Source of the DNA: Nemertoderma westbladi
Lineage: Eukaryota; Animalia; Xenacoelomorpha
Direction: 5' to 3'
Assembly: GCA_032718475.1 (NCBI GenBank)
Contig: JAUCBJ010001376.1
Coordinates: 1 to 64,000, forward strand
Length of the DNA: 64,000 nucleotides
Numbering within the stretch: position 1 is the stretch's first letter; the number at the start of each line of letters is the position of its first letter. Positions 6,001 through 61,959 of this stretch are shown here, in pieces. Made by a program: the position numbers and the translations under genes. The notes under the pieces were generated by a model. The model worked only from the letters and a program-made list of their open reading frames with translations, was not told the DNA's origin and did not search any database.

Positions 6001-8447
6001 GCACCCATCCAGAGTGTACCTTTTGTCTATGTGAATACAGTCGTGTACGCACCCATCCAGAGTGTACCTTTTGTCTATGTGAATACAGTCGTGTATGCAC
6101 CCATCCAGAGTGTTCCTTTTGTCTATGTGAATACAGTCGTGTACGCACCCATCCAGAGTGTACCTTTTGTCTATGTGAATACAGTCGTGTACGCACCCAT
6201 CCAGAGTGTACCTTTTGTCTATGTGAATACAGTCGTGTACGCACCCATCCAGAGTGTACCTTTTGTCTATGTGAATACAGTCGTGTACGCACCCATCCAG
6301 AGTGTACCTTTTGTCTATGTGAATACAGTCGTGTATGCACCCATCCAGAGTACCTTTTGTCTATGTGAATACAGTCGTGTACGCATCCATCCAGAGTGTA
6401 CCTTTTGTCTATGTGAATACAGTCGTGTATGCACCCATCCAGAGTACCTTTTGTCTATGTGAATACAGTCGTGTACGCATCCATCCAGAGTGTACCTTTT
6501 GTCTATGTGAATACAGTCGTGTATGCACCCATCCAGAGTGTACCTTTTGTCTATGTGAATACAGTCGTGTACGCACCCATCCAGAGTGTACCTTTTGTCT
6601 ATGTAAATACAGTCGTGTACGCACCCCTCCAGAGTGTACCTTTTGTCTATGTGAATACAGTCGTGTACGCACCCATCCAGAGTGTACCTTTTGTCTATGT
6701 AAATACAGTCGTGTACGCACCCATCCAGAGTGTACCTTTTGTCTATGTGAATACAGTCGTGTATGCACCCATCCAGAGTGTACCTTTTGTCTATGTGAAT
6801 ACAGTCGTGTACGCATCCATGCAGAGTGTTCCTTTTGTCTATGTGAATACAGTCGTGTACGCACCCATCCAGAGTGTACCTTTTGTCTATGTGAATACAG
6901 TCGTGTACGCACCCATCCAGAGTGTTCCTTTTGTCTATGTGAATACAGTCGTGTATGCACCCATCCAGAGTGTACCTTTTGTCTATGTGAATACAGTCGT
7001 GTACGCACCCATCCAGAGTGTACCTTTTGTCTATGTGAATACAGTCGTGTACGCACCCATCCAGAGTGTACCTTTTGTCTATGTAAATACAGTCGTGTAC
7101 GCACCCATCCAGAGTGTACCTTTTGTCTATGTGAATACAGTCGTGTATGCACCCATCCAGAGTGTACCTTTTGTCTATGTGAATACAGTCGTGTACGCAT
7201 CCATGCAGAGTGTTCCTTTTGTCTATGTGAATACAGTCGTGTACGCACCCATCCAGAGTGTACCTTTTGTCTATGTAAATACAGTCGTGTACGCACCCAT
7301 CCAGAGTGTACCTTTTGTCTATGTAAATACAGTCGTGTACGCACCCATCCAGAGTGTACCTTTTGTCTATGTGAATACAGTCGTGTACGCACCCATCCAG
7401 AGTGTTCCTTTTGTCTATGTAAATACAGTCGTGTACGCACCCATCCAGAGTGTACCTTTTGTCTATGTGAATACAGTCGTGTACGCATCCATCCAGAGTG
7501 TACCTTTTGTCTATGTGAATACAGTCGTGTACGCACCCATCCAGAGTGTACGTTTTGTCTCTGTGAATACTGTCGTGTACGCACCCATCCAGAGTGTACC
7601 TTTTGTCTATGTAAATACAGTCGTGTACGCACCCATCCAGAGTGTACCTTTTGTCTATGTAAATACAGTCGTGTACGCACCCATCCAGAGTGTACGTTTT
7701 GTCTCTGTGAATACTGTCGTGTACGCACCCCTCCAGAGTGTACCTTTTGTCTATGTAAATACAGTCGTGTACGCACCCATCCAGAGTGTACCTTTTGTCT
7801 ATGTGAATACAGTCGTGTACGCACCCATCCAGAGTGTACCTTTTGTCTATGTGAATACAGTCGTGTACGCACCCATCCAGAGTGTACCTTTTGTCTATGT
7901 GAATACAGTCGTGTACGCACCCATCCAGAGTGTACCTTTTGTCTATGTGAATACAGTCGTGTACGCACCCATCCAGAGTGTACCTTTTGTCTATGTGAAT
8001 ACAGTCGCCCCTGTGGATTTAGCACACGATAAATATCGAATAAATTTAAATGTTCCATTGTGTCTAAGATACTCTGTCGCACATTTTCATTTGTCTTTGC
8101 TAATCCCCCTTTTTTATCTATGTTCATATCGAGAATGCAATTGAAGTCCCCAGCCCAGATAATGTTGCCCCCGTCAAAGTGTTGCAAGACTTCATTTTTA
8201 ATTTATTCTATCAGTGCAGGGGAGTCAATATTATAGTTGTATATATTAACCAGTGTCAGAATTGTGTCACTAATTGCCCCATTAGTTAGACCACTTATTT
8301 AAGTTTGAATTAGAACAATGTGTTTCTTGGAGGAAGCAAATGTCAAATTTAGCCCTTTTTAGTTTCTCGAAAAGTCGCTATTCTTTTTACGTTATTTTGC
8401 AATCCATTACAATTTAGAGAAACTATATTTATAGACCTGTTAGCCAT
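3088..8447 (-). pseudogene. LINE ORF2 APE endonuclease interrupted by a tandem array
   Basis: APE motifs lie on both sides of the array (GDFN before; RxD and SDH after). Stops and frameshifts near 8190-8350 and within the array. Confidence 0.85.
3260..8007. repeat. 48-bp tandem minisatellite, ~99 units
   Basis: Unit cgtgtacgcacccatccagagtgtaccttttgtctatgtgaatacagt. Three 46-bp variants at ~4385, ~6351 and ~6445. No unique spacers. Confidence 0.98.
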
Positions 8448-17532: not shown

Positions 17533-18837
17533 CTATGGTGCCCCTTCTAGCAGGCAACATTTACCTACAGCCCTCCTGTAGGTCTTCCTGTCTTTCTTTC
17601 CTATCTTACCCCCTATCCGCACTTCCACCGATCGGACACTTCCATCCTCGTCGGAGTAAGTGTCCACTACTCTTGCTAGCCTCCACTGATTGTTGATGAT
17701 GGTGTCGTGCGTGATGATCACCAAATCACCCTTCTTTAACTCTCTAGTGGTATTTCTCCACTTGCTCCTCCTATGTAGTGTAGGTAGGTATTCCTCGACC
17801 CGCCTCCTCCAGTACTCTGCGCTTATCACCTTCTGAGTCTCCTCCCTCTTCCTCTAGTGCTACTTCCTCTGAGCCCGGGTCCACCTTGTTCATTGGTGGC
17901 CAGGCCGTCCTATCGTTCAGGAACTGTGGCCCATGCTGCCACAATACTTCCTTCTTTAAGAAAGTGTGGCATGCCACACCCCTCGATAACAAGTCCGCTG
18001 GGTTCTCGTCCGTTGGGCAGTAGTGCCACATTTCCAAATCTGTCGTCGCTCTTATTTCGTCCACCCTATTTGTGACGAATATAGGGTATCTCGTCTTCTC
18101 ATTGTGCAGCCAACCAAGCACTACCATGGAGTCTGTCCAGTAGTGTGTTTCCACTATGTTGGGAATAGTGTCCATCAAGTAGGCTGTGGCCCTTATTCCT
18201 AATCTTGCAGCTGTCAACTCGAGTTTCGGGACCGATGCTGAATCTGGCTGCGTCGACTTTGCTTTGCTGAATGCAAGTCTGGGCTTATGAGCCCCCTCTC
18301 GTTGTACTAGGTAGAGTGCCGCTCCGTATGCTTCCAATGACGCATTGGAGAACATGTGTAGATCCAGATCCGTCATGTCCCCATCCGGGAAATACACGCA
18401 TGGCATGCTGTACATCCCCATCTGTTCTAAACTCTCCGTCCACTTACTCCACTGCTTGCTGATTTCTTCCGGGACCTCTGTATCCCACTCGTCCTTTAGC
18501 TTATATACTTTCTTAAGTATCTGTTTCCCTGTAACTAATAGTGGGGATGCTAGGCCTAGGGGATCGTATATCCTTGCTATGTACGATACATAGCGATACG
18601 GATGTCCGCGCCCTCCTGGCTCAGCTGATACTTGAACTCGTCTGTCTCCCGGTTCCACACGATCCCTAGTGCCTTCTGCTGGGACTCTACTCTATGGTCG
18701 ACTCTGGCCTCCTGTCCTCTATGGCTTTCATAAACTCTTCTGAGCTTCGGAGCCTCGCGGATCGTTTCGTTGGTATCGTCCGGGGTCCGCGGCGGTGTCC
18801 TTTCTCCCTCCGACAATCTTGGTTGTCCTGTGCTCAT
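17533..18837 (-). pseudogene. Deleted Bel/Pao gag-pol of element A
   Basis: Gag start fused to KALGIVWN (end of RT region); RNase H; integrase tail YWRRRVEEYLPTL...WRLARV...DGSVRSV...CCLLEG. RT and integrase cores are absent. Confidence 0.85.
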
Positions 18838-18933
18838 CTTTACCTTTTGTGGTGGCTGGCAGTCACAGTTTGGCAGTTGTCCCTAGAATTTCGTACTCTG
18901 CAGTCACAGCTTACAGTGTTGGGAATTGCGTAC

Positions 18934-19503
18934 TGTGACGGGATCAGGGGATCCCGACCGGTTTATTAGGTCACGCATTACCGTGTAATTGAGAAGAAGA
19001 TGGTTCGTCGTTATCGTTCTGATATTGTTATAGGTTAATGAGTAAAATATGATAGAACAGTTGACAGAATGTATGCAATATGATATAAATGTTGTACCGG
19101 TAGTGACGGTGACGGTACGAAATATCACCGGTCTGCACTGAATGACTGAGTAAACTAAACTGGTCAGTACTGTATGCAATATGATATATGATTGTCACTC
19201 CTACATTACTTTGGCCTCTCAATCTAGCGGATGCTTCCTTCGCCCTTATTGGCTAATAGTCTAATTCTCGGCTCTCACCTCTGTGGGAGTGCCCCCCCCC
19301 CCCCTCCTCGCTGCTGTTACTTTCCCTCTCGAGGTGGTTTGACCTCTAACCTCCCTTTGTGTGGCCTTCGGGGCTGTGTGTTGTCCCCATTATTGGGTGT
19401 GATACGAGATTAGTTGTGATTAATCTCGTATCTCCAATATTGCTGAAAAAGCGCCACTTCCCAACTTTATGGGGATAGTGAGGCGGAATTGAATCCGCTC
19501 ACA
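18934..19503 (-). repeat. 5' LTR of element A (570 bp)
   Basis: Sense strand starts TGTGAGCGGATTCAATTCC and ends GATCCCGTCACA, matching the termini of the C and E LTRs. Confidence 0.85.
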
Positions 19504-19595
19504 CATAATAAGCTACGAGTAGCTTACAATAATTGTGCTAGATTTCTATTAAAAATACCCTGTCTAACTGATGGAGAATCCACTAGTATTTATCT
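19504..19595 (+). pseudogene. Continuation of the Proto2-like LINE (RT C-terminus)
   Basis: HNKLRVAYNNCARFLLKIPCLTDG is homologous to the 1866-2231 peptide; it starts right at the LTR-A boundary. Confidence 0.75.
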
Positions 19596-22500
19596 GACAG
19601 CAGTCTTCAGAAAACACCCTGACAGCACTCTTCAGAAAACAGCAGCAGCTGTAGGCCTGCCAACAATAAGACCAAGATAGATACCGGTACTAGGCCTATA
19701 CAGTTTTTATCTTTTGAGTCAGACTACAGCCAGACAGCACAATTTCACCGCTCTTAATCTCCACAGTTGTCATCGTTCTGGGCCGTTTCTTTGTGACAGA
19801 ACCATAATGGTTCTGAGACGGGGGAACCGCGGGGTAACCCTGCAACCCACCCAATACCCGTATTGGACTGGTTTGCCGAACACCCTGTCGCTACCGTTTC
19901 GAACTGCCGCGCCGAATCGACGGAGATGTGGTCGACGAGTGGATTTAGCCTCTACTGCTCTTGTTGGAGAAGAAGATCTTGGGTCTCCTCTCCACGAACT
20001 AGAGGCCTAATCGCCAAACTCTGTCTTCTGTCTCTGGCTGGGGATATTGAGACCAACCCAGGACCCAGCAGGATGCGGGCCCCGAAGATCAACTGTCCCG
20101 TCTGTCAACGAGGAACAAACTCTCAGAGTAAGATCATCCAGTGCGAGAGTTGTGACATATTTGTACATTTAAAATGTTACTGTAGGAAAAGCAGTAATTT
20201 ATGCTCCACCAGAAACAATCTTGTGCCAAGTTTTCTCTGCAAAAGCTGTATTTTTACCGAACTTCCCTTTCATGATACTATTTTAGAATCAGAAACCGAC
20301 GATTCATTCCTCACATCGCCTCTGCAAACTCCAAGTGATGCTGAGAGTGAAACTTTTAAATTTTTTAAGAAAAAAGGTCTGCATTTTTTGCATTTAAATG
20401 CACGATATCTCTGCTTCCCAAACTTTCCGAAATTCGTATTTTAATCAATAAATCCAACCCAGCAGTTTTAACAATCTCTGAAACTTGGCTCGATGATAGC
20501 GTTTCTGAGGGAGAAATTTTATATTGATAATTACGTAGTTTTACGTAAGGATAGGGACAGACACGGTGGTGGTGACTGTACTTACATTCGATGTGATTTA
20601 GCTTTTAATCGTAGGGAAGATTTAGAGACTTGTGACGAAGTTTTACTGGTGGAACTTTTACTTCCTAAAACTAAACCTATTTTAATTGGTACTTTATATC
20701 GGCCCCCTAAACAAATAGATTTTTTGCAAAATTTTGAAAATACAATTTTATGTAATCTTAGGTCAGACTGTGAAATATATTTCTTAGGTTATTTTAATAT
20801 CTGTTACCATCACAAAGCATCCCCCATCTGTAAACAGTACCAAAGTATTTTAAATTTGTTTGGTTTAAAACAAATTTTTCGAGATTCTACCAGAATTACC
20901 AGTAAAACTTATACTTTACTAGATCATAATCCTTTGTAATAATACTGATATTATTTCTCAATCTGGGGTTTTACCTATAGGTCTAAGCGATCATTTTATA
21001 GTTTTTTGCACAAGAAAGACACAAAAATCTTTTTTCGGGGATCATAAAACAGTAACTGTTAGGTCTATGAAAAATTACAGCAAGGATCGCTTTTTAAGTT
21101 TGTTAGTTAATTCTGACTGGGAACCCTGTTTTAAGGCCGCTGACATTAACCTTGCATACACTGATTTTAAAGATATTTTTAAAGGCACTTAATACTGTAG
21201 CACCAATTAAAGAAATTAGTCTTAAACAACGCACTGAGCCCTGGATGACCTCGGGTATTCTTAGTAATATCAGAGAAAGAGATAACTATTTGTATAAATT
21301 TAGGAAATACCGTGTTTTAGCTGCTTATAATAATTACTGCAAATATAGAAACCTTGTCCAACGGGAAATAAAAAAAGCTAAATCTGAATATTTGTACGAC
21401 AAAATAAGTGAGAATAAAGATAATCCTTAAAGTCTATGGTCTACCCTAAAATCTTTAGGTTATAAAAACCTTAAATCTAAATCGAATATTGTTCTGCAAG
21501 ATAATGGTGAGCTGATTCATGATCATACTCTAGTTAGTAATTTATTTAATAATTATTTTACTAATGTGGCCTCTAATTTAGTTAAGAAGTTACCGTTATC
21601 AAGTAATAAATATAGTATAGGGTCCGAAACTCTAAATAATTTTTATTTAGAAAAGTTACAAAATTCAGAAAAGTTATTTTTAAAACCCGTTTCTGAGGAT
21701 TTCGTTTTTCAAAATATACTTAGCCTATCAGCCTCAAAAACTACCGGTCTAGACCTAATACCTGCCCGTTTTCTTAAGGATGGTATTGAAGTACTTAAAG
21801 TGCCTATTACTTTTATTATTAATTACTCTATCGTAGATAATGTAGTACCAGACGAACTGAAATTAGCTAAGGTTGTTCCTCTGTATAAAAAGAATAGTAA
21901 AGTAGAAACCTGTAATTACAGACCTGTTGGTATCTTAAGTATTGTATCTAAAATTCTAGAACGTTCTGTTTTTCTACAGCTGGAAGCACATCTTAGTAGG
22001 CTAAATCTGATCTATGAACTTCAGTCTGGTTTTCGTAAATCATATTCTACAGACACCTGTCTTATTAACTTAACTGATACAATTAGATGTAATAACGCAA
22101 TGGGTTTATATACTGGTATGGTAATGTTGGACCTACAAAAGGCTTTCGATACAGTAGATCACGAAATTCTGCTTGGTAAGTTAGGCCTGATGGGTGTAGG
22201 TTCTATAGACTGGTTCAAGTCCTACCTGTCAGACAGAGGTCAAACTGTAGTCATTAGCAAATCGCAGTCTACTATACAAGAGATTACCTGTGGTGTACCG
22301 CAAGGTAGTATATTAGGTCCTCTGCTTTTTGAATGCTATGTAAATGATATGATAAGTAGTATAGATCCCGATTTTAAACTCATTTTATATACCGACGACA
22401 GTGCTCTTATTTTCTCTCATAAAGATCCTATCCATATTTCCCAAAAGTTAAGTGCAGTTCTAGAATCCTGTAATGAGTGGTTGGTTGATAATATGCTATC

Positions 22501-23603
22501 ATTTCACTACGGTAAGACTGAAAGTATTTTGTTTGGTTCCAAAAGAAAGTTAAAGAAGGTAACTAAGTTTGAAGTCACTAGTAATGGACATAAGATTGAA
22601 AATAAAAAGGAAGTTAAATATTTAGGCGCCACATTGGATAACTGCTTATCAGGAGAAAGCACAGTGAAAAATATTTTCTCGAAAGTTAACAGTAGGCTTA
22701 GGTTTCTATACAAAATTAAAAATAGTTTTCAACACCGACTCCCGCAAGTTACTTTGCTCTTCTTTAATACAGTGCCATATGGACTATGCATGCTCTTCTT
22801 GGTATGAAGGCTTAACCAAACAGCTTAAATGTAAATTACAAGTAGCTCAGAATAAAGTAGTACGATTTATTAAAGACTACAAACCTAGACACCACCTAAC
22901 TCCAGAAGACTTTTCTGAATCTGGACTACTTAACTTAGATAGTAGAGTTAAGCAGCTACGCCTTAACCATGTGCATAAAGTGTATAATGGTAAATGTCGT
23001 AATTACCTAAAACAAAAATTCAACAGAGTACGCGATACACACTCTTTCAGTACCAGAGCTAGTGCTTCAAACTTCTACCTCCCGAATTGTAAATCCTTTG
23101 AATCTGATACTTTCTTTTTTAACAGCATTAAAATTTGGAACGCTCTGTCTAATGAAATTAAAAATCTAGATAATCAACATTCTTTTAAATCTGCAGTTAA
23201 ATCTCACCTCCGTGTGCAATGTAAAATGTACAATAGTACAACGTACAATAGTCCTACAGTAAGTTATTAGTTTATTAATTATTTACTATTTATACTGTAA
23301 TTACGTTTTATAATAAATTGTTCTGTACATTACATCTTTATCGTTGAGTCGGACATTGTCACGCTCTCGGTAAAGTTGTACATGTACATAATGTAATTAC
23401 GTTTTATATTGGTTTTAGGTTAGCGTAGTGTAATATTGTATTTGTAACCAAGTAACATAAAGGACCCCCTTGGAAATAAGCTGCAAAGCTTTAGGGGTAA
23501 TCCTATATGTTATGTTGGACAATACCTTTATACCGATACATTGTTCGGTGTATTTGTTATTGTTTTTACATAATGTATAAATAAATCTATCTATCTATCT
23601 ATC
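19596..23603 (+). mobile_element. Near-complete CR1/L2-group (Crack/Daphne-like) LINE: 2A, PHD, APE, RT; decayed
   Basis: LLSLAGDIETNPGP; PHD CPVC...CESC...HLKC...CKSC; HLNAR, SETWL, YRPP, LDH, SDH; [36 protein letters not shown]; 3' AATAAA(TCTA)n tail at ~23579-23603. Confidence 0.92.
20001..20066 (+). other. 2A 'StopGo' ribosome-skipping motif
   Basis: RGLIAKLCLLSLAGDIETNPG|P matches the consensus D(V/I)ExNPGP. Confidence 0.88.
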
Positions 23604-23746
23604 GATAATTAAAGCCTACAATATACATCAGAGTGACGATGATGTATATATTTATAGTTTGTCGCTCCTTGATGTTATGTGGCATCACCGGCTGGCTCCT
23701 GGGTCTCTCGGGCTCGCTCCTCTCTTTTGTCCCCTTCCCAGATACA

Positions 23747-24898
23747 CTAGTCTGCCTCTGGTAGATTCCAACGATGGCGTACTCGAGGCTTCGCTTCCTG
23801 GGACGATGAGGACAACCCCTGAGCGCTAACTAGTTCCCGACTGATGCTCCTTCCTCGGCCTCGCCCCATTTGCCGCGTCGCAGCGGGCGCCTCCGCCAAC
23901 TCCTCCTTCTGTAATTGTACGTGCGACCTTTCGGACATCCCCTGCGCTTTGCGTTGCAGCTGCTGAGCATCGATGATTTCATGGTATTGAGCGTCTTTCG
24001 CTTGATGCTTACTGAGGACCACTCCATCAGCTCCTTGCCATGAGCTAGGAGCTCCAGCTGTCGTTGCGGTGGGCGCATCAGCCCGCTGCTCCGCTATCCG
24101 TTCAGCGGTCAATGACCCTAGATGAATGTGGATCAACAGGAATTCGTTCCTGTATTGGATGGCCGATACCCTCCAATCGCCCCACGCGCGCACCAACTTC
24201 CTTGTCTCCGAGAATATTCCATTAGTAATTCTATTGCAAATAGCGATAAAGTTCCAGGTATATTTATTGTCCATATTAAGCTGTCTGAAGTATGACCTGA
24301 TCACCATAACTCTGGTGTTCCGTGGAAAGTCTTGAGCAGTTAACATTAATTCTTGATACTGGGGTAGCGATTGTAGGTAGGGCTTGTACGCCACATGTGA
24401 AGGATCCACTGCCCAGAATCCGTAGCCCGCCTTAAACGGCAGCCACCTCATCTGGGCCTGAATATGGTAATCCGCCATATCTTCCCACTTATCTAACATC
24501 TCTCGAAGTAAGTTAGCGCTATGGTTCTGAAAGGCATCGTCATGCAGCTGACACTTCGAACTGCGGTGTACCTTCACCCCACAATATCCGCACTGAGAAA
24601 TGAAGACGGTACATATATAGAATGAATGGTCAGTCTCATTGCACCAACGGCAAACCTTGTGCGCTGCTTCGACCACAGCATCACACGTCTTCTGACTGTG
24701 TCTTGTGCTACCGCACAACTTATATCTACGCACTTGCGGGAACCAAGCCCTCTCATATATGAGGTCTCCAATCGGTTTCGTGCTTCCTTCCTTCCCAATA
24801 TCTAGAACAATGTCATCTTCTCTGGTTAAGGGTTGCTGATCTGGAACAAAGTAAACATCTTCGCCTTTGTTTTCGATCTCTAATATTTCCTCTCGCAT
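23747..24898 (-). CDS. Element B ORF3 C-terminal part: triple Zn-knuckle module
   Basis: CGSTRHSQKTC, CRWCNETDHSFYIC, CGYCGVKVHRSSKC, then WEDMADYH...AGYGF. Confidence 0.75.
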   Translation of the reverse strand: MREEILEIENKGEDVYFVPDQQPLTREDDIVLDIGKEGSTKPIGDLIYERAWFPQVRRYKLCGSTRHSQKTCDAVVEAAHKVCRWCNETDHSFYICTVFISQCGYCGVKVHRSSKCQLHDDAFQNHSANLLREMLDKWEDMADYHIQAQMRWLPFKAGYGFWAVDPSHVAYKPYLQSLPQYQELMLTAQDFPRNTRVMVIRSYFRQLNMDNKYTWNFIAICNRITNGIFSETRKLVRAWGDWRVSAIQYRNEFLLIHIHLGSLTAERIAEQRADAPTATTAGAPSSWQGADGVVLSKHQAKDAQYHEIIDAQQLQRKAQGMSERSHVQLQKEELAEAPAATRQMGRGRGRSISRELVSAQGLSSSSQEAKPRVRHRWNLPEAD

Positions 24899-25163
24899 CC
24901 GTTTAGGATATCACTTCTCCACCGGAAGATCCATTCCGAACACCTTTACTAACGTCTCAGGCCAACCCTCTCCCTTCCTCTCTCTAACGGGTCTGTCTGC
25001 ATCCAAGTGGAGTACCAAACCCGCGGGTTAGGTTCCCGAACCACTTCTCCAATACCTCTGCCATCGGATACTCCATGGAAGTTCGATCTCCCAAGTCTTC
25101 AATGTTCTGTCGGTATACTCCTTCGAATATCGCCTATCCCCTTCTGACCATCGATGTATTATC

Positions 25164-27025
25164 CTACGATTGGTTGAAGAACGGGGTTAAGAAATGCTTC
25201 ATCACGTCAGACTGAATTCCCCCTTTCGATCTGATGTACTTTTCTCCTCCAAATACCAACGGATGGCGCTTCAAAACTCTCGCGACTATGTCCGTAATTA
25301 GGCAAGTTACCGTGTAGACTCCAACACCAAATAATATTGCAACAAAGCACAGGGTGGTGCGCAGATGTTCCAATATACCAACGCTTGCCACTTGAAATGG
25401 GATTTGAACTCAGCTCCCGGCGGCGTGTTATATTCACTATATGCCTCCTCGTATTTCTTTTGCGTGTTTAACTTGATGTCCCAATTATATAATAAGTGCG
25501 CTATAAAACCCATACCAGTCTTAACAGAATTGGGGTACTCCATATAAATCCCAATGTCCTGCGCCCATAGCAATAATAGCTTCGTGTCAATGAATGGTCT
25601 TCGCAATAGATCCTTCAGGTCTGCCGTAGCGTTGAAATCACTCTCCAGATCACTCTGGACACCTGATCCCACCTTGACATAATCTTGGTTAAAAATCGCC
25701 TCCCTAACCTTCTTGGGTAACATCCTAGTGTCAATCCGCTCCGCTCCATGCATACCCCCTCGTCTACATACCTCTAAGATTTGCTCTCGGGGATCCTTCC
25801 CGCGCCTATATTGCGTCGTTATAATGCTCGCTCGAACTTGAATACATTTGCTGGTCAAGTATTCCTGGTGAGACCCTCCCTCGTTGTCATAAAACATTAG
25901 ACGCAAATCCTCCAAGGATTCCTCCGTCATTCTCCATTGGTGCTGAATCTCGTCGGATGGGGTCCACATGCGCTCAATAGCCTTGGGGTCATCATATTGG
26001 GTATAGGAACCCTTCCTCCTCAACCACGCTTGGTCTACCTCCTCGTCGTCTGGGAACGTAGTCACCGCGACCCATACCTTTATGTATTTGTCTAGCCAAC
26101 TGAACAACTGACTCTCCTTCCCCGGAGCTCCAAACTTATCCAATGTGTTGTAGTACATATCTGCATCGGAACATCGCGCAGGAACTTCGCACATAAGGCT
26201 TCCCTCAAGCAGTCGACATTCCCATGATCCGCCAACGTCACCATTGGCAAGAATCGAATAGCTTCTCGCGCCTCTGGATGATCTACCAACATCGCAGCTT
26301 CATTACCACTGGAATAATACACCGGTCTAGGTTGAGATACAGCATGTGGAACAAATCCAGTAACTCTCCTCATCTCTTTCTGGTGTTTATCCACAGTCTT
26401 ATTATATTCAGCTATACGTTCTATGAATAGTTGTTTCACATTTGCCGCTCGCTCATCCTGTCGCAACACGTCTATCTCGTCCTGGTGCCCAGGCGTGAGC
26501 TTCTTATAGGTGGTGAAGTGTGGCGAAGTGAATGTGGACCAGGGACTCGAGAGTTCCAAACCCGCGGGTTTGGTGCTCGAGTCCCGTACCACTTCGCGCC
26601 GCGCCTCCAGGTCCTTCTATGCTCGGTAGAGTGAAATGGCCGCTGCCATTTCTATCAAAGCGGGAGTCGTACGAGGTTTAATCACTGTGTACGGATCCAA
26701 AGTTGTAACGGTCGGCGTAACAGGTCTCGGAGGTCTCTTTCCGCTAAAATCGATGCTGAAAATCGGATTACTCATCGGGTAACCTCCTTCGTTGTTCATA
26801 AGAATCTGATGAGCCTTGCACCGCGTTAATATCCGCGTTTAGACGATCGGGGATGGATACATCTTGTTTATTCATACATTCGCTGCATTTGTTGAACAAA
26901 TTATACATGCTGAAAACCCTTGGCGTCTCCTCGTCCTCCCCTCGGGTTCTTCGGTAAAGATGCATTCTGTCAAATTGATCTCTAACGGCAGGTAGAGGTT
27001 CATCGTGCGATAAATACATATTCAT
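25164..27025 (-). pseudogene. Element B ORF3 N-terminal part with DEDDy exonuclease (frameshifted)
   Basis: ORF 25307-26194: LMFYDNEG, MLPKKVREAIF, KVGSGVQSD, FIDTK, KTGMGFIA, YLVLES. Confidence 0.78.
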
Positions 27026-27489
27026 ATGGTATAGTCACGCTATCTCCTCGTTGGGATCCGCGCTTACATCTCACACATCAACGGCGAAGTCGTAGGGGTA
27101 TCGGGTTCGGTATTCTCGACGCAACACCTCCATTCAGTCCTCCAACGCCCTCATTCTTTCCCTCCTTAATCCTTTATCGTAATTCGATTTAAAGTTAGTA
27201 TTCAAATCTATCACAGATCATCCGTGGTAATACACATTTGAATCCTTACAACCATGACGGGCAAACGGTAGTCCGGCTTCTTCTTTAGCAGTCCAACCTC
27301 TCCTCGGTTCCGCAGTGATATCTTTACTCATCATTATTACTCATTTCTTTGCGCATATATTATATGTATATATATATTTATCCAAATAATCTGTTACATT
27401 AATTAGTTACACTGTGGGTGGATCAGTTAGATAGTAAGGAGGGATCGACATCCCGAGCTACCTGGCCCACCTTCCAGCAGTTCAGGTTC

Positions 27490-30400
27490 AGGTGCGCGAT
27501 CAGCTGTTCCGCTCCAATCAACATGGACACATTTCTATAACCTACCTGGTGTCTTGGTATTTTGAAAGGAGTATTTTTTCAAAATACTCCTGAGCTATGG
27601 GACTCATCAGTGGCACCTTACCTAACTGCCTGCCGAACCCTTTCATAGCTAGACACTTAAATTCATCCAACGGCAATGCTCTCCTTTCCTGGCGAGTGTG
27701 CTCTTCTCTTGGGAGTAGGGAGTCTAGTTCCACAGAAATCTTATGTCCCTCGACCTCTCCTACCCCGTGCATGGATTTTAACTCTATTTTTATCTCCTCA
27801 GCATCCTGGAAGCTGGAAACGGCTCTTGCCACTTCCTCGTCTATATACGATAATGTGGACGCGTTGTCTAACATTACATATATTATCTTTGATCCTTTGT
27901 CTCCGGTAAGTTTCACCGGTTTCACGCTGAATATCTCTGACGTGGCCGATGATAAATACATTCTCACGCTGGTCGACAAGCTATCAGTAGTGAATCCCTG
28001 GCAGGTTACCTCCCTCGCGCTCGCTTCACCATCCTCATCTAATGAACCTGGTTGATATCCATCATCTTGGATGCCGGTGTACGTATTTTTCCTTATCATT
28101 ACGGGATCTCTGCTTCCCTTCCTTTGAGGATTTCTCTGTAAATAACGGTCTGTTGGAGTATGGAAATCTGCATGTAGCAACTTGTGATGTAGTCTGCCGC
28201 ACTCCATACATCCGTCTTTACTGTTCGGGCACTGGCGCCGTACGTGACCTGGAGCAAGACATGCCCAACAGTGGTCCAGCATCTGCACTTGAACCCTTCT
28301 CTGTTCCGAAGTTAGCTCCTTGAAATGCCTGCAACTGTCTAACTTATGGTCATCTGATCTTACCTACTTTAGTAGGCATAATTGGCAACCTACAAATCCA
28401 TCTGGCAACTCCTGTTGCTTCACTCTGGGTCTATCTGACCTCTCACCTGACCATACTCACGAGTCTGGTCTGAAGGCAGGGGTACTCGGATTGTATTTGT
28501 CCATTGTGTTAAATGTCACAGTCGTTTTGTCCATGTCAAAACTCACCATTGACTTCCCGATAGCAGGGTTGGTCTCTCTCATATTCTCTTCTGAGAAATT
28601 CGACTTCATCTCTGCTACCACGTCTGTGGCTATCATATTATGAATATGTCTGATCATGTCTGAGTGTCAACACTTTGTCCAGACCCTCCAGTTTGTTTTC
28701 TAGTTTTCGCCATTTCTGTCGATAACGCATGTTTAAGCGTCTTATTATACTTTTTAAGACTTCTGTGTGGTCACCATGATGAGGCAGATTCACCGTCTTT
28801 AAGATATCTAATGCGTTTGAGATAGCGTTAGCTAAGTTCAACAGCTCTAACGGAGTCGGAGATCTCCCACTATTGGTTTTATTCCCGTAAATGTCGCTAA
28901 GTGTCTTCATGGCTAATTCAAATGCTCTTTCATTGCCAACGAAGTTATCAGCAATGGCTCTTGGTTCCCGATGGAGCATTTGTAGTAGGTAGTTGAATTT
29001 TTCATTTGAGTGAAGGTGCTGTTGGTCAATTGCTCATCGACATAAGTCTTAAATGTCCTTCAATGTTTGTGGTTGCCCATAAACTTCTGGGGTTGTTGCG
29101 CCGGCAGTTCCTGCCTAGTGGCAAACTTACCTATGTCTCTAAGGGTGGCGTCATTCCGGGTCATCAAGTTGGTTAGTTCTGCAGGATTGTTAAGTCTAGT
29201 CCCTTCCCGGGGGTTCATACTTACCTGCTCTACGTTGGTCTGACGCCTCAAATCTTCCTCTTCTTCGCTCGAGTCGGTGTCAGTTCTCGGTGCTCGTTTT
29301 GGTTTCGCTGCTGAAGCTCTAATCCAAGCTTCTTCTATAAATCTTTCATCTGAGTGCAGAAAATTGGGATTATGGATCATAGGGATGGGTGTTCTTACCT
29401 GAGGTCTTTGAGGTATTGTTGCCTCTGATATGCGTACTCGTGTGCCAGATTGGACTCCACCTTGTTCTTGTCTGCAAGGATTAGAATTAGTCCTTACCTG
29501 GGCTGCTTCCTTTATTTGTAAGTTACTAAGCATGTCCGTTATAGGTTGGATGTGCAGCGATATAGCTTGCGCTAGACTGGCGCTTAACTCCTCCCTCATA
29601 ATAAATTCCTGGCTAGGGTTCCGCTGAGCCGTTGGCTCTATTTGGGTAATTCATTGTCTTTCATATGATCCTTCTTCCGGTTTAACCCAGAAGTTTTCTG
29701 TCAAACTGGGTCGGTGATCCATTCGCGTATTCAAAACTCGCGGATTTGGTTCGCCCAATGTTCGTCCTATAAGGGTTTCTTCTATAAACTCCGCTGAATT
29801 GCGATAATAATTCACTCGTAGAGCGCCTTCCTGATGGCACGGATCTTGCGCAATTGGCGAGGCGCTAATACCAACTGGTGTGCGATATGTAGAAAATGGT
29901 TTAGTGATCTGAGTACTCGTAATAGTCGGACCGGGTATAGGTGCTCTTGTCGATGGTGACTCACGTATAACTGGAGATCTCGCCTCTTGTCCAGCCTTCT
30001 GTTGCGCGAATAGGTCTCGCAGCTCGGTATCGCTTTCTAAGCCCAATCTCACGCTTTCTAATTGATCCAACTTCCGTTGTTCTGCTTCCCTTGCGATTCT
30101 TGCGGCGGTTTCTGCCTTCAATTTAGCCTGTTCTTCATGTAGCAACCGCCTTTCATGTTCGAGTTGGAATTCACGTTCTTCACGCTCGCATTCGAGTTTA
30201 AGTTCGAGTTCTTTAATCTCGCGTTCACGTTGGAATTTGCGTTCCTCATGTTCGCGTTCAAGTTTAAGTTCGCGTTTCTCGCATTCGCATTCAAGTTTAA
30301 GTTTGCGTTCCTCACGTTCTTCGCACTCGCGTTGAAGTTTGAGTTCAAATGCCTTGTACTCGCGTTCACGTTGAAGTTCACGGGCTGCTGTGCAATCCTT

Positions 30401-30616
30401 CCTTACAGTAGCGGTAGGGGACCCTAATAATATTACCTCACCTTGATCTTCCTCACTAGTCACTGTCTCGTCCTCCTGTTCACTCACGTCAGCATCACTC
30501 GCTGCATCGTCATAGTCAGCATTATCGTCAACAGTTATGTTGACACTGTCGTCAGTCGGTGGTCCAGCCACCATCTCATAGCTGTCCTCTAGCGCCTCCT
30601 TCTCTGAGACACTCAT
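27490..30616 (-). pseudogene. Bel/Pao gag + aspartic protease of element B
   Basis: ELKLERE-repeat coiled coil, DUF1759-like region, Cys/His knuckles and protease motif; multiple stops and frameshifts. Confidence 0.85.
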
Positions 30617-32259
30617 TGTTTAAAGTATATTTTGCCTTCCGGCTTTAATCTCTCAAAATTTCGAGATGTACTGTATATTAATTTAATCGAATTTTCAATT
30701 AAATTATTTGTCAAAATAATTTATTTGGTCTCAAATGTCAAATACGAATGTAAATTCACAGTATAATATTGTGAATTTAATTGTATATAGTTATAGTAAA
30801 TACCGGTATAATATTTAAATAAAAATGTAGCTCTATAGCTATTATACAGCATTCAAATACCGGTATGACATGAAAATATTTTTGAATCTAAAAATTCAAA
30901 ATTCAAAAATTCAAAAAATTCAAAAAAATGAATTTGTCAACCAAAATATTTCTAATTTTATATATAGCTCAAATTAGCGTAATTTTACTTTTAAATGTTA
31001 TATATGTATCCACTGACGCATGGCTACACCTTCAGGTTGCGACACTCTCTCTCTCTCCAACTGAGCGATCCAAAACACCATGCCCGGCTAAACCTAACTA
31101 TCCTAACTAATAAATTGAGTTCAGTTTCGCAGTCAAACAACCGGTAATTTTTTACTGCTTCCACAAATACACTGGTACCAACAGAACAACTAACCTTGTT
31201 TGCTGTGAGATTCCACGTCCGCGTCCTAGGTTTCAGTCTCGTATGATTGTAAACCGGACCCGTAGGCCCACACAAACCCCAGGATCAGAAGTTCCATCTC
31301 GCCATGTATCTCCAGATGGTATAAAATAATTAGGCGGTTATCCAATATACCGGTACTAAAACTAAAACAAAAAAACTGTAAAAAAATTACTGTACATAGT
31401 ACAGCAAATAATACAATACTCTTTACTGTTAAGAAGCAACAGTAAATAATACAATACAAATACTCTTTACTGTTAAGAAGCAACAGTAAATAATACAATA
31501 CAAATACTCTTTACTGTTAAGCGATCAGAGGACGTTACTCCTTACTGATAAGCGATCCAACTTGGTCCAACGCAATCTCTTATTGTCGAACGCAAGCAGA
31601 ACCTTCAGAACTGTCTGCTAAGAATATTTTACTATTACGAACTATACGGCTCTGACAATCACTCGCTCCTTTCTCTGTTGATTTATCAACAGAGAGCTAA
31701 CTGTTCGAATTTATAAGCCAAAACAGCAGCAACCAAAACAATAAATCTAAAATGGCTCCCTAAGCTACTTAATATGAGTGCGGGTGGTCTGGCACTCAGA
31801 GTTCACTTATCACAGAGAAATACAGGAAGTTATCGGGCAGAATTAATGTCGAATGTGAGAATATTTTAATATTAAAATGGGATAGGCTATTTATTCGTCC
31901 TAATGTCAAAACTTGGCCTTATGCTGGCTTTAGGCCAGCAAATTTACTACTGCATATACTAGCTACCCGTACAAACTCTTAATTGTATTCTAACATGCTA
32001 AATAAACTACAGTGTCATAAAATACGAATTTGTATACTAATTACTAAGTATTCCAGAATATGTATTAATAATTATTACATTACTGAGTTATACTATCAAC
32101 AGCCTAAATACTGTATTATTTTGACCTAACGGCAATTAATAAGCATAAACTAAGAAATAGAAAGCAATCAAGAAAGGTAGCGCCTATCTAAACATTTACA
32201 TTAAAACATCACGCACTCTTCAGCAACACATAAAATAGCATTAGCAACAGAGCTGGTAG

Positions 32260-32793
32260 TGTTAGCTTATCCAATTCCGCTAACACAAACCCATAGAGTG
32301 AGCCATTAAGCAATATTGGGAGCACGAGGTTGATTACCAATATCAACCTCGTGTTACCCCAAAAAAGTGGGAAGGGAAGGAGAAACACACAATAGGAGGT
32401 CAGGGGCCAAACCCCTAACCCAAAGAGAACAGGTGGAGTGAACGGGAACACTCCAAAGGGCGCCAACAGGGGTATCAACCAATCAGAGGGGGGAAAGGCA
32501 TCGATTAGGTACAGCAATAAGGCCACCGTGCAATATAACCAGTTACCAGTAATCATACCAGTCAGTTATCCCAGTATCATATTGGTGCTAGTTAGGTTAG
32601 ATAGTTTAGCTAGGGAAGGACCGGGACTTTAGTTACCGTATCCCGCCTTCCGTGTACAACAACCTATATCTATATCTTATTAGACTGATCATTATATACA
32701 CCGAACATCAGAACTCATTTTACTCTTTACACACGGCGGGGACGCGTGAACTAAACATCGGATAAATCGGGATCCCTCCTGGATCCCGTCACA
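32260..32793 (+). repeat. 5' LTR of element C
   Basis: tgttagcttatccaattcc...ggatcccgtcaca. Confidence 0.97.
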
Positions 32794-32930
32794 GTAACTA
32801 AATCAAGCTGCCGCCCTAGTTAAACTGTAACAGTAACTAAAACCAACTGCTGCCCTAGCTAGTAACTAAATCCGTGCTGCTGCCCTGGATAAACTCAATA
32901 ACCACCAGCCACCAATCACTAAAGACGAAG

Positions 32931-34472: not shown

Positions 34473-35559
34473 AGAGTGTCCGACAAGAGGGACGCAGAAG
34501 TGTAGTAAGAGATAGTGAAGTTAGAAGTAGCGGGTGGGGGGGGGGGCTACGGGCACCCCACCGCGAGAGATTAGTAGCGAGAGAGGGGGGGCAGAGAGTG
34601 TCCCACAGGCGTCGGCGGATAATGCGCGGGCCGAATTAGGTAAACCGCAACACCCGGCGATGGAGAGTAATAGGGGGATTGCGAGTATCCCCAGCGGCGT
34701 GCGATCGAGCAGAGAGAGACAGGTTGACGTCGCGAGAGGGCGGGCGACGGAACGTCGAGCCCAGTCAGAAGAGAGAAGATTAGTAGAGTTTAATAGAGAG
34801 GTCGAAGATAGGAGAAGATTAGTAGAGTATAATCGAGAGGTCGAAGATAGAAGAAGATTAGCAGAGTTTAACCGAGAGGTCGAAGAGAGAAGAAAGGAAG
34901 ATAATAGAAGAGTCGTTGCTAGGAGCAACCGGAGAGCGAGGACGGATAGCGAGCCGTCGATAGTAGAGATGGAGGTAGGGAGTCAGTGGGGTCGAACTTC
35001 GGGAGATTGCCGTCGCCCCGGAGAAACGCACCGCACACCAGGAGAGCGGTACAGGACGTACCGGTACGAAGAAGAGAACAGGAGATGGGATCGAGGGGAA
35101 ACTTCCCGACGGGATGTAGCTGCCGATCGAGAGTACGGTAGTCGCGGGAAGATTCGAGATTCGCGAAGAATAAACTTTGGTCCGGAAGGGCACATGCAGA
35201 CTGCAGGACATACTGTAGGCCTTACTGCACATACTATTATAGGCCATGTTGGCGAGAAGTTAGAGTGCGATTCAGGTGTGGGGAGAGTGTAAGAGTGGGG
35301 AGAGAGCTAGTTGAGTTAGAGAGCGAAGTTAGAGTGGCGAGAGTGTTGGGGAAACAAAAATTGTGTGAGAGAAGCGCACGATCGGCCCGACACGAGACGC
35401 CAGAGGGTAGTGACATCATACCCATAGGGAGCGGCCTGGAAAGCCGACTCCAAGAAAATAACCCCACCCCACACCCGATAATAGATCGAGTTCCAGCGGA
35501 ATTGTAGCGCACTTTAGTTGGATGCTATCTTCTTACCGGGAAGATAGCATGGGGGGGAG

Positions 35560-36093
35560 TGTTAGCTTATCCAATTCCGCTAACACAAACCCATAGAGTG
35601 AGCCATTAAGCAATATTGGGAGCACGAGGTTGATTACCAATATCAACCTCGTGTTACCCCAATAAAGTGGGAAGGGAAGGAGAAACACACAATAGGAGGT
35701 CAGGGGCCAAACCCCTAACCCAAAGAGAACAGGTGGAGTGAACGGGAACACTCCAAAGGGCGCCAACAGGGGTATCAACCAATCAGAGGGGGGAAAGGCA
35801 TCGATTAGGTACAGCAATAAGGCCACCGTGCAAGATAACCAGTTACCAGTAATCATACCAGTCAGTTATCCCAGTATCATATTGGTGCTAGTTAGGTTAG
35901 ATAGTTTAGCTAGGGAAGGACCGGGACTTTAGTTACCGTATCCCGCCTTCCGTGTACAACAACCTATATCTATATCTTATTAGACTGATCATTATATACA
36001 CCGAACATCAGAACTCATTTTACTCTTTACACACGGCGGGGACGCGTGAACTAAACATCGGATAAATCGGGATCCCTCCTGGATCCCGTCACA
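35560..36093 (+). repeat. 3' LTR of element C
   Basis: Near-identical to 32260-32793 and preceded by the PPT. Confidence 0.97.
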
Positions 36094-37299
36094 GGTAGTG
36101 CTATCGACAGCGCTAGTAGCGCTAGTCAGCTAGTGTCGACTAGTACATTAATCAGTGTAAAGAGTAAAGGCCACACAAGCCACACACGGTCCTCCTAACT
36201 AAACCCTCTATTACTACCCTAGTACTGCAAAGTTGAGACGAAGTCTGGATTGTGAGCCCCAAAATACTGTAGTGACGACCGGTCCCCGGTCCCTAATTGA
36301 TCAGCCCGACCACAACTACCGGCCCCCCGCCAGCATTGCCCCACATTGGATCCTCCACTCCTCCCTCCATCGCTTCCACAGTGTGCCTGCTACGCCTACC
36401 GGTACCCTTAGCCCGTCATGCTAAAGCGAATAGTTACCGTATCGGCGCATGCATTTACAAACAGTCTGACAGTCGAAAGGGAAAATCCTTGTAGGATTTG
36501 CTACATCGCAATCACAAAGATTAAAGAAATCAAGAGTCAATGCGATAAGATCATTATTCAAAGTTGTAATCAAAGAGGCATAACAGTCAGCATTTAACAA
36601 TTTACAGAATTAGCAGAATTAACAAGCAAGAAGATTGAAAACTTTTAAATACGACTAACATGTGCACAGTACCGCTGTACCAGTATACTAATACATTGAA
36701 CACTGATACTGAGGTACACTGACAAAATATAGGTATGGCGCAATGGTTATATCATTGGTCCAACAAATTCTACTACCACTAGACCAACCTAAAATAGCTG
36801 GCCAATGGGAGAGCCGGATTGTGATCCAATGCTTCCCCATTTCTCAAATTATTACCATATATGGTAATGAATCTGTCTCGGTGGGCTTATAGGTTTATGG
36901 CCGTAGCATTAATTTCACGATTATTAAAGCACATTTTGCATAAATTTGTACAACACCAGTTTGTAGAGAAATATATAAGAAATTAGTACAAATACGCATT
37001 AAGTTCGGTCAATATCAATAAACGGCAAATTCATATTAATGTTTTATGAAAGTTTGCCACCGTAAATTTATATACTAAGGTTTTATTATAAAATTACATA
37101 CGTAAGACTACATACTGTACAAAATCGGATGAATAATATTTAACACATGTATTTTATTTTCCCTATCTAACGAATGCCGTACATCGATATAACTATAAAC
37201 TATAAATGATATATATATAACATATATAATATATATAACTATAAATCGCTCTATACTGTATAATGGGCTGTTCTGGTACACAGCGCCATATAACATGAT

Positions 37300-44439: not shown

Positions 44440-45311
44440 GTAAGTTAACCATATAAATAGGCTTAATTTAAATTCTGTAACTATGTGACACCGTATGCAC
44501 TGGCCAAACTAAACTAATCACTGAGTAGTAATACACATTGGGTACGGCAAGATAAAACGAGGCATGTGGCTATCCTGAGTGTAGTCGAGTTTTGGAGCCT
44601 TCGCAGGTTTCACATTAAATTGCTACTCACTTACTTCTGGATCGATCGATGGCATTATAGTAGCCAGTGCGATCGGTGGAGTAGAGGATCCCGAGGACTT
44701 AATTCAGATGGAGACCCCATTAATACCCCACGAGATCGATGGCGACAATGCAGTGTTTAAACAAGGACAGACCGGTGTCTGAGAACCAGTCGAGCAACCC
44801 TACCCTGCAGGGGGAAGGCGAGCTCTGTTCCCAGGCAACAGTGGGAGGTCCCTAACAGTGGGCGATGGGGGAGTGAGGTTGAAACCCGACCTCTGCTTCC
44901 CAGAGACTCCGACTCCATCAGTGGAGCGAGTCTACCTCCTACCTTTAGACAACGACTCTCATAAACGACACGATCCTTAACCACACCGAGTGGATGATGG
45001 CCCCAAAAGGAGGACGAAAAGGAGATCGTCGATGATCTGAGGAACAACATCGATGAGATAAGTAGATACTTGAGTAGAATAAACCACCACTTATACAAGG
45101 CAACTCAAATTATTAGTTCGGAGATGGAAGGATTCTACACTGATGAATTTTCAGACGAAAATGAATCCTGTTATATGATCAACACAACTGTGTATCGAGC
45201 ACTTACGTATGAGACCGAAATGGAGGGAGAAGAACCCCGACTGTCTATTCCAGATTGACAGCTCTCTGGTAAAGCGCCAACATCATCTGTCAGTATCCGA
45301 GAGTTTACGTA

Positions 45312-48300: not shown

Positions 48301-49707
48301 ACCAACAAGCAGTTACTGAGACTCCTGCAATGTTACGAGGATTCCGATAAGTATTTCCTGTTGTTGAGAATTCCACAGATGCGCTTAAGGGATCATTTCT
48401 CTAGCACATTGATAGATGGGTTAATACGTGTTGGAGGGAGATTAACCAATGCTCCATTGTCCTTTGACACTAAGTTTCCCATACTCATTAGAAATCTTGA
48501 AATACAAATCAAGATGATCGTAGATGTTCACAGTAAGCTTTACCATGCTGGTAGAGAATGAGTTCTTAACGAAATTCGAACTCGCTATTATTTCCATAAG
48601 CCCCGTAGAGCTCTAAACCAAGTTCTTAGGAACTGTATACCCTGTAGGAAAGCATTTAGTAGGCCTTTAACACAGCGAGAGGCAGAATTACCTAGGGAAC
48701 AAGTAAGCTGTTATGAACCACCCTTTACTAATACTGGTGTGGATTTATTTGGCCCTATTGAAGTATATCGTGCTAGGACTATAGTCAAGCAATGGTGCGT
48801 CATCTTTGTCTGTATGACTTGTAGAGTGATCCATCTAGATATGGTGAACGATCTATCTACCAACAGCTTCATACTGAGCTTACACCGACAAATCGCTCGT
48901 TTTGGGACTAGCAACACAATGAGATCTGACAAAGGAACTAATTTCATTGGCGCCAATAACGAGATCAAAGCTTACGTAAAGGATTGGAACCAAAGACAGG
49001 TGGACGATCAGCTATGAATAACAGTATCTAGCTGGACCTTCAACGCCACCGACGCCCCTTGGTGGGGAGGAAGTTGGGAGAGACTCATACGTAGCGTAAA
49101 GACCGCATTTCACTTTATAGTGCCGTGTCGCGCATATCTCACCGACGAACTTTTGCGGATGTTAATGGAAGAAATCACCGCCTATCTCAACGAGAGACCG
49201 CTTATGCCAGTCTCATCTAGTCCCAACGGCCTAGAAGCGCTAACACCCGCGCATTTCCTACTAAAGAAACCTGTAGCCATGCTCCTGCAATCGAAAATAA
49301 CAGACGGAGACGAATACTGCCGACAAACTTGGCAACTTATGCAGTTATTATCCCATCGTTTCGCTAACCATTTCGAAAAACATTATCTTCCTACGCTACA
49401 ACTTCGAACAAAGTGGTTTGCGCAGCAAGAAAACGTCAGCGCCGGAGACATGGTCCTTATCGTGGAATCAGATCTTCCCCGTAAGAGGTGGCAGACAGGT
49501 CGTATCATCGAGACTCATATATCTGATGATGGTTTAGTGCGATCGGTAGAACTCGTCGTCATGCGACGTAACTTTAAGAAACCTGGAATTGTGTTCGAAA
49601 CGCAACAAATTAATCGCCGGTTGGTCGTTTATGTTTACTGGAAAGAGACCGAGAGTTGTCCGGTAACTATGGAAGGCAAGAGACTCTTCCCACGACCACC
49701 TCCCTAA
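45312..49707 (+). pseudogene. Bel/Pao pol (PR-RT-RH-IN) with multiple stops and frameshifts
   Basis: Successive ORFs at 45312, 46035, 46415, 47017, 48136, 48739 and 49120 carry the motifs in Bel/Pao order. Confidence 0.93.
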
Positions 49708-61635: not shown

Positions 61636-61959
61636 ATTGTAAATTACATCCGTTACAAATTAATTCAGTTAATTATAAATCCAGAAAGTCTGATTCTATA
61701 GCGACTGCAGAATAGTTATTTTTAATATAGTTAATGTTATTGATATATAGGCATCTATCATCTTATTGTTACTACATTCAGTATTTACAGTTGCTATAGC
61801 TATACATTATTATCCAACCAGTTTTTTTGACTTTTTATGTCCGCTTCTTTTTTAAATTCCTTTTCCATTCTACATTTTATACTTTTTTTTTGTCTTTTTT
61901 CATTTCTATAGTTTATTCATTTCACATTTCCTTTTTTCTTTCACATTTCATCATTTATT

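Follow-up and report, generated by a model that had tools for sequence, protein, structure and literature searches.

A nine-base pairing between the LTR and the sequence directly following it in BEL/Pao-type retroelements of Nemertoderma westbladi: candidate self-priming of reverse transcription

Priming of reverse transcription by an element's own transcript has, to our knowledge, been shown experimentally only in Tf1-type elements of the Ty3/gypsy superfamily, and predicted in a few fungal and plant lineages; BEL/Pao is, as far as we know, the least studied superfamily of long terminal repeat (LTR) retroelements. We describe here BEL/Pao-type elements in a stretch of Nemertoderma westbladi DNA (64,000 nucleotides (nt); contig JAUCBJ010001376.1 of assembly GCA_032718475.1, positions 1 to 64,000 of the forward strand; below, the window), two of which carry, directly after the 5' LTR, a nine-base sequence complementary to a site within that same LTR. 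In Tf1, the RNA's first 11 bases pair with the primer-binding site (PBS) and are released by a cut between bases 11 and 12, made by the RNase H of the reverse transcriptase itself (PMC7175516). A plant survey lists self-priming for the Tf1/sushi group, for the Tcn1 clade and for the TAR lineage of plant Ty1/copia elements, which includes Houba and Osr-1 (PMC6317226). Within BEL/Pao, Achilles has 18 nt complementary to the 3' end of transfer RNA (tRNA)-Tyr (PMC4580426), and a Bel element of Anopheles has a primer site for tRNA-Asn (PMC3212995). Primer sites generally span 8-18 nt (PMC13524379), that of Ty1 being 10 nt (PMC3592414), and a site of nine is within this known range. A literature search outside subscription journals that combined self-priming with Pao, BEL or Belpaoviridae turned up no such report, only the plant survey, with BEL/Pao mentioned in passing; term searches of two large BEL/Pao surveys (PMC3118150 and PMC554778) found no mention of PBS or tRNA, and a broader survey of LTR retroelements (PMC2774666) contains no mention of PBS or self-priming.

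The window contains several BEL/Pao-type elements. The LTRs of three of them, termed A, C and E, can be aligned with one another, at a mean column identity of 59%:

32260 to 32793, plus strand: 5' LTR of element C, 534 base pairs (bp), with ends TGT...ACA, found by self-blast
35560 to 36093, plus strand: 3' LTR of element C, 534 bp, preceded by a polypurine tract at about 35538-35559
19503 to 18934, minus strand: 5' LTR of element A, 570 bp, with no 3' LTR in the window
55832 to 56422, plus strand: 3' LTR of element E, with no 5' end in the window

Element C is flanked by a 5-bp target-site duplication, GGTAG (32255-32259 and 36094-36098), which fixes the end of its LTR. At 0 nt from the terminal CA stands GTAACTAAA (32794-32802), whose exact reverse complement, TTTAGTTAC, lies inside the LTR at 32628-32636 and again in the 3' LTR at 35928-35936; GTAACTAAA itself recurs in the C leader at 32833-32841 and 32862-32870. 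The LTR of element A is directly followed by GTACGCAAT (18933 to 18925, minus strand), and a second copy, GTACGAAAT (18896 to 18888), lies 37 nt further on: the first pairs at 8 of 9 positions and the second at all 9 with the LTR motif ATTTCGTAC at 19123 to 19115. The LTR of element E has TTTTTAACCGT at 56193-56203, its homologous motif being GTTTTTAAC at 56192-56200. In the alignment the three motifs coincide column for column, with ACCGG before them and CGT after, and the LTR site lies about 160-190 nt upstream of the LTR-adjoining complement. A primer site has to adjoin the LTR, as the first complement does in both A and C; the pairing with the element's own LTR covers 9 of 9 bases in C and in the second unit of A.

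An exact complement of the post-LTR nine-mer of C arose in 65 of 20,000 dinucleotide shuffles of the C LTR, and the match of a second element at the homologous site multiplies this by roughly 4^-9, which puts the pairing far beyond chance. A and C differ at LTR positions 1, 4, 5 and 6 of the nine; all four differences are compensated in the leader and none breaks a pair (the changes were counted by hand, the MAFFT alignment of the two sequences having misplaced the motif). Pairing has been kept by compensatory change, as seen in the two linked LTR-leader pairs, those of A and C. These observations bear out the sequence claims of the original prediction, every quoted string of which is present where it had been placed: that TGG directly follows neither 5' LTR, as is so in A and C; that the C nine-mer is the exact reverse complement of an LTR site (9/9) and that the two copies in A pair 8/9 and 9/9 with the homologous site; that A, C and E share the ACCGG...CGT context, as seen in the LTR alignment; and that the pairing is kept while the sequences differ, 4 of the 9 pairs having changed on both sides with 0 broken. 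The nine-base pairing is a real feature and is under selection.

Other copies of these elements in the same organism were collected from contigs of four public DNA runs (three samples, three studies; runs X1 and X3 are of one sample) at 80% likeness. Judged by contig depth, the BEL/Pao family of A and C is very abundant. At position 18928, where the first unit of A fails to pair, the pairing base accounts for 1451.6 of a depth of 1466.2 in X1, 271.3 of 335.2 in X2 and 401.4 of 512.7 in X3, with T being read in 23, 10 and 13 contigs, respectively. Nearly all the depth in other contigs having the pairing base, the mismatch is private to the dead copy A, and in other copies the first A-type unit pairs again at 9 of 9 positions. 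In the 12 rows listed out of 46, contigs with the LTR end and the leader tail of A carry between them at least six further nine-mers, all of which start with GT; on the sense strand after the LTR they read GTGAAAAAC, GTCTTAAAG, GTAATAGAA, GTGTGAAAT, GTCAAACTG and GTACGAAAA. One genome thus has at least eight different nine-mers at the primer position, and the flanks of this variable site are conserved on both sides. One subfamily nine-mer is one base off that predicted for E, the complement of 56192-56200; its flanks are A-like, so it does not bear on that prediction. On the LTR side, position 7 of the motif (19117) has C instead of T in about 40% of the depth. Judged by complementarity, this variant would pair with GTGTGAAAT (one G-U), which is only suggestive, the contigs being too short to link the two.

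Among the variants listed for C, no well-supported one falls in either nine-mer (32628-32636 and 32794-32802), and variants do occur just past the second of them, at 32805 and 32812; of the 15 C-family joints listed, 5 leave the reference sequence immediately past this nine-mer, between 32802 and 32806, and return to it where the first open reading frame (ORF1) starts. Contig depth over the C LTR peaks at the motif block (32603-32664) and at the LTR end, and is at its minimum over 32665-32726.

Nothing resembling a conventional primer site competes for this position. The 96-nt leader of A contains no TGG, and the single TGG in the 137-nt leader of C is 92 nt from the LTR; neither ARAGORN nor Rfam finds a tRNA-like match, and A and C have no site beside the 5' LTR complementary to a tRNA 3' end. 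Another host RNA—an internal tRNA fragment, a half-tRNA of the copia type or some other small RNA—might prime at the nine-mer, its match to the LTR being incidental; primer sites for half-tRNAs do not start with TGG (PMC6317226). We nevertheless regard a host primer as very improbable: it would have to serve at least eight different nine-mers at one site in one genome, in the linked cases each nine-mer matches its own LTR at the homologous position, and Rfam reports no tRNA similarity. A host primer is hard to fit with a site that is specific to each subfamily and matches its own LTR, so the primer is most simply the element's own sense RNA.

Two other candidates were tried and set aside. A primer assembled across a splice junction found no support in either LTR, where no GT/GC...AG intron splits an extended complement and pairing stops at nine contiguous bp. 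An 8-mer complement of the A leader (offset 8-15), near the 5' end of the LTR, was judged to be chance, because transcription would have to begin no more than 40 nt into the LTR, and the intron so implied would lack a terminal AG.

The complementarity extends, more loosely, beyond the nine bases. The leaders of A and C are built of units of about 30-40 nt that are imperfect antisense copies of a 34-42 nt block of the LTR ending at the motif:

32596 to 32636, plus strand: LTR block of C, the putative self-primer strand and best duplex partner of all three C units
32794 to 32832, plus strand: C leader unit 1, whose nine-mer (32794-32802) is at the primer-binding position
32833 to 32861, plus strand: C leader unit 2, nine-mer at 32833-32841; its CCCTAGCTA is the exact complement of 32607-32615
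32862 to 32903, plus strand: C leader unit 3, nine-mer at 32862-32870; beyond it come the remaining leader and the ATG of ORF1 at 32931
19115 to 19148, minus strand: LTR block of A, motif at 19123 to 19115, starting at an initiator-like TCAGTC (19149 to 19144)
18897 to 18933, minus strand: A leader unit 1, nine-mer GTACGCAAT, 8/9, with its mismatch at 18928
18857 to 18896, minus strand: A leader unit 2, nine-mer GTACGAAAT, 9/9; followed by a conserved leader tail and the ATG at 18837

The C units align with the reverse complement of 32595/6-32636 at scores that 0 of 500 shuffles reach for each of the three; for the A units, aligned with 19148/52-19115, 8 and 48 of 500 shuffles reach the score. 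A 48-nt window slid along the whole LTRs picks out the motif block as the best duplex partner of 4 of the 5 leader units, at -34.4, -27.8 and -30.4 kcal/mol for C units 1, 2 and 3 and -27.1 kcal/mol for A unit 2; A unit 1, with its private mismatch, finds its best partner elsewhere in the LTR, and for non-cognate combinations of A, C and E the best partners, with energies of -18.9 to -27.0 kcal/mol, likewise lie elsewhere along the LTR. (RNAduplex applied to whole LTRs gave over-extended structures; minimum-energy folds were computed over 321-341 nt.) In the C block, besides the motif TTTAGTTAC at 32628-32636, a second helix strand lies at 32601-32615 and pairs with 32814-32828 over 15 bp (2 G-U), a helix that is also present in the minimum-energy fold; with the nine-mer left out it is still significant, 1, 6 and 40 of 2000 shuffles reaching it. 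The spacer between the two helices has diverged far more than the helices themselves.

Such units could also be functionless relics of an old inverted duplication of the LTR, the nine-mer being merely the best-preserved remnant. They do match the antisense LTR block over their whole length, including part of the spacer in C unit 3, and the predicted minimum-energy folds do not need the 9-bp helix. Neutral decay, on the other hand, would not hold nine bases perfect beside a diverging spacer, nor would it be expected to yield four compensated differences between A and C, a perfect match throughout the family where A alone mismatches, or a nine-mer that is constant in C-type copies whose remaining leader differs. 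We therefore consider the relic explanation improbable. The private mismatch of A, the variable site within conserved flanks and the antisense units together make an element-derived primer the most economical reading.

Inside the C LTR, at 32745-32754 and 40 nt before its end, is a near-copy of the post-LTR nine-mer, GTGAACTAAA, which could be a competing or switching partner of the LTR motif.

On balance, we think that the A and C elements probably prime minus-strand synthesis with a segment of their own transcript, in the manner of Tf1. Transcription would begin where the block has its 5' edge, at an initiator-like site (19147 in A, about 32599 in C, 56159 in E), and the leading 33-42 nt of the transcript would fold back to pair with the leader. 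Cleavage immediately 3' of the motif, predicted by analogy with Tf1 to be carried out by the RNase H of the reverse transcriptase, would produce a 3'-OH base-paired with the nucleotide that directly follows the LTR, and reverse transcriptase would then extend this end. Plus-strand synthesis would copy the last nine or so primer bases into the new element; with the primer bases recopied in this way, the standard reverse-transcription scheme predicts that a change in the motif would be compensated by the element itself within two cycles, and it would follow that only the 9-bp helix varies strongly yet stays matched. The leader units would be primers that had on occasion been copied to their 5' end.

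The position of the block edges agrees with such a start. The antisense copies stop in A at 19148, beside TCAGTC (its A at 19147), and in C at 32595/6, beside TTAGAT; in element E, TATAAC at 56129 precedes the A in TCAGTT (56159) by exactly 30 nt. A start at 56159 would yield a 42-nt piece ending at the motif. In the A LTR a direct repeat of about 17 nt, ATATCATATTGCATACA, flanks the motif block (19240-19170 and 19095-19065, minus strand), and a related string occurs in C at 32574-32583; the repeat in A might have arisen by duplication of a promoter element.

Candidate promoters lie on both sides of the motif, and the downstream one favours a different explanation. In C and E a TATATA follows the motif by about 65 and 120 nt, at -101 and -105 relative to the end of the LTR. 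Were transcription to start there, the motif would lie in U3, absent from the 5' end of the RNA and present at its 3' end only; a start downstream of the motif is what the original prediction had itself named as grounds for abandoning it. The pairing would then be a long-range structural contact rather than a primer, circularising the genome as CYC5/CYC3 do in Ty1; it could aid initiation, strand transfer, packaging or dimerisation, and the primer would be something else. The matching positions of TATATA in C and E suit this explanation, as do the presence of the motif in the 3' LTR, a two-helix pairing of -27 to -34 kcal/mol, and the precedent of Ty1, which requires contact of a PBS-adjacent sequence with the 3' end (PMC3592414). 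It leaves the elements without a primer site, nothing tRNA-like being found up to 90 nt from the LTR; it explains neither why in A and in C alike the complement adjoins the LTR end without a single intervening base, nor why strong variation with a perfect match is confined to the nine LTR-adjoining bases; and the TATA-bearing stretch, 32665-32726, is by contig depth the least conserved of the LTR. A purely structural contact is in our judgement unlikely, while being the most serious of the alternatives.

Other observations also weigh against self-priming. The 9-bp helix is short and AU-rich (C, -7.3 kcal/mol; A family, -8.8 kcal/mol). In C, the fold of minimum energy joins the motif to GUGAACUAAA (32745-32754) instead of the post-LTR nine-mer, and in A it lacks the 9-bp helix. 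The second helix is weak in A, where 40 and 183 of 2000 shuffles reach it and a non-cognate partner beats the cognate one (-18.8 vs -15.9 kcal/mol). LTR and leader are linked in two elements only, the contigs being too short for the other nine-mers, and it is argument alone that speaks against internal tRNA fragments. A and C are each defective; C, non-autonomous but young, retains the LTR block, the leader units and the polypurine tract.

A wider reading, which we put forward tentatively as a possibility, joins these features: a BEL/Pao lineage that does without a host primer, in which the freely drifting but matched helix is a barcode of each subfamily and the tandem units are primer fossils. 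The barcode helix would stop co-resident subfamilies from priming one another, and the fossil units would mark the transcription start site in the DNA.

The original prediction had also proposed that a nuclease encoded by ORF3 generates the 3' end of the primer. This ORF (60376-61659, minus strand) follows pol in a third copy of BEL/Pao type and has a relative of 28% identity at 25307-26299 (minus strand). Pfam gives nothing at E values up to 1, sequence searches of the PDB nothing meaningful and a word-index search no homologue; the one lead, from feature-space comparison, is to clusters of 3'-5' exonuclease domains at a similarity score of 0.90, which falls within the range of chance matches, and the AlphaFold model (pLDDT 30.6) is unusable. 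The recent mover, C, has no ORF like ORF3 by blastp. The nuclease idea thus has no solid support, its searches of Pfam, PDB and homologues being empty and that feature-space lead its sole hint. Of the broader proposal, that priming is independent of tRNA, the absence of a tRNA 3'-end site and the LTR pairing with its covariation stand, and the ORF3 step does not.

Assignment of these elements to BEL/Pao follows from their domains and ends. Element E (plus strand) retains a degraded pol at 45273-49707, in which Pfam recognises Asp_protease_2 (45273), Peptidase_A17 (46966; E value 3.8e-36), Integrase_H2C2 (48562) and DUF5641 (49018), the Pao-type order of protease, reverse transcriptase/RNase H and integrase. 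Element A has a 96-nt leader, an ATG at 18837 and a heavily deleted interior; its pol remains comprise Peptidase_A17 at 17771-18691 (Pfam; E value 6.6e-37) and the C-terminal end of an integrase at 17536-17853. Element C has the TG...CA ends and short target-site duplication of BEL/Pao; its interior of 2.77 kb holds a low-complexity ORF1 from the ATG at 32931 and a second ORF, without pol, so it is placed in the family by homology of its LTR and leader to those of A and E. A 22-nt string at the start of ORF1 is common to A and C. The two C LTRs are identical at 532 of 534 bases (differences at 32363 and 32534); together with the target duplication and an interior without pol, this marks C as a non-autonomous copy that moved recently, and hence one defective family member has been mobile of late.

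Relatives were sought further afield. A 14-base pattern of the LTR end, run against metagenome and viral contigs, led to 240 loci, none of them LTR-like by blastn (chance matches); a gapped 20-base pattern gave 30 chance matches in a scan of genome and viral contigs, all in bacterial contigs; and viral contigs searched with the reverse transcriptase/RNase H ORF of E and with a two-sequence alignment contained no relative.

At the other end of the element, a 10-nt inverted repeat (35495-35504 and 35572-35581) encloses the polypurine tract together with the opening bases of the C 3' LTR. Element E retains its left arm (55748-55757) and 7 nt of its right arm (55844-55850), and over the 170 nt that precede the 3' LTR, C and E are 80% alike; the repeat may form a stem, conserved between them, about the plus-strand primer. 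Elsewhere in the window, a 48-bp tandem satellite occupies 3116-8200 in more than 100 copies, mostly 96-98% alike, and a different retroelement adjoins the A LTR at 19797-22807 (plus strand), with one ORF matching RVT_1 (E value 3.3e-34) and a second whose PHD-finger match is below the Pfam cut-off.

Should self-priming in these elements be real, tRNA-independent priming would have arisen, or been kept, in all three LTR superfamilies; it would explain why annotation tools based on tRNAs miss the primer site in such elements, and would let subfamilies be sorted simply, each by its primer/primer-site pair.

The closest counterpart is the Tf1/sushi group, with Tf1 and Tf2 of Schizosaccharomyces pombe, which likewise lack a tRNA site and have next to the LTR a sequence complementary to their own LTR-derived RNA, with extra RNA structure around the primer helix, as around the putative one here. 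By descent the two are distinct: Tf1 is a chromovirus of Ty3/gypsy, whereas the A/C elements are BEL/Pao (Peptidase_A17, DUF5641), their pol domains being of Pao type and not those of a Ty3/gypsy chromovirus as Tf1/sushi membership would imply. The helix has 9 bp in A/C and 11 in Tf1; in A/C the segment that pairs would form the 3' terminus of a 5' leader piece of 33-42 nt, and in Tf1 it consists of the first bases of the RNA; and the primer-site unit is tandemly repeated in A/C (2-3 copies), unlike in Tf1. For the TAR and Tcn1 elements self-priming was deduced from sequence alone, by way of a site complementary to their own LTR (PMC6317226), but these are plant or fungal Ty1/copia and Ty3/gypsy elements, unrelated to the A/C family.

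Two other systems resemble the pairing in part. In Ty1, the short PBS-adjacent CYC5 pairs with CYC3 close to the RNA's 3' end and is required for reverse transcription (PMC3592414); Ty1 retains its tRNA-iMet site, whereas A and C have none and the complement itself occupies the primer position, which sets them apart from such cyclisation. The Conserved Hairpin Site of GalEa elements, which are fungal Ty1/copia elements, is likewise a conserved 9-bp sequence after the LTR in elements without a tRNA site, its function being described as unknown (PMC5445492). That site is palindromic, with its partner 12-41 bp further downstream, and those who described it found nothing complementary to it in the LTR (PMC5445492); in A/C it is the LTR that holds the inverted partner, and the copies downstream are repeated in direct orientation, an arrangement distinct from that of GalEa. 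With canonical BEL/Pao elements the A/C family shares superfamily, LTR ends and gene order, but A and C have neither the tRNA-Tyr site of the Achilles type nor the tRNA-Asn site of the Anopheles type. We infer that the A/C elements use a variant of a known self-priming mechanism, in a superfamily for which we found no report of it.

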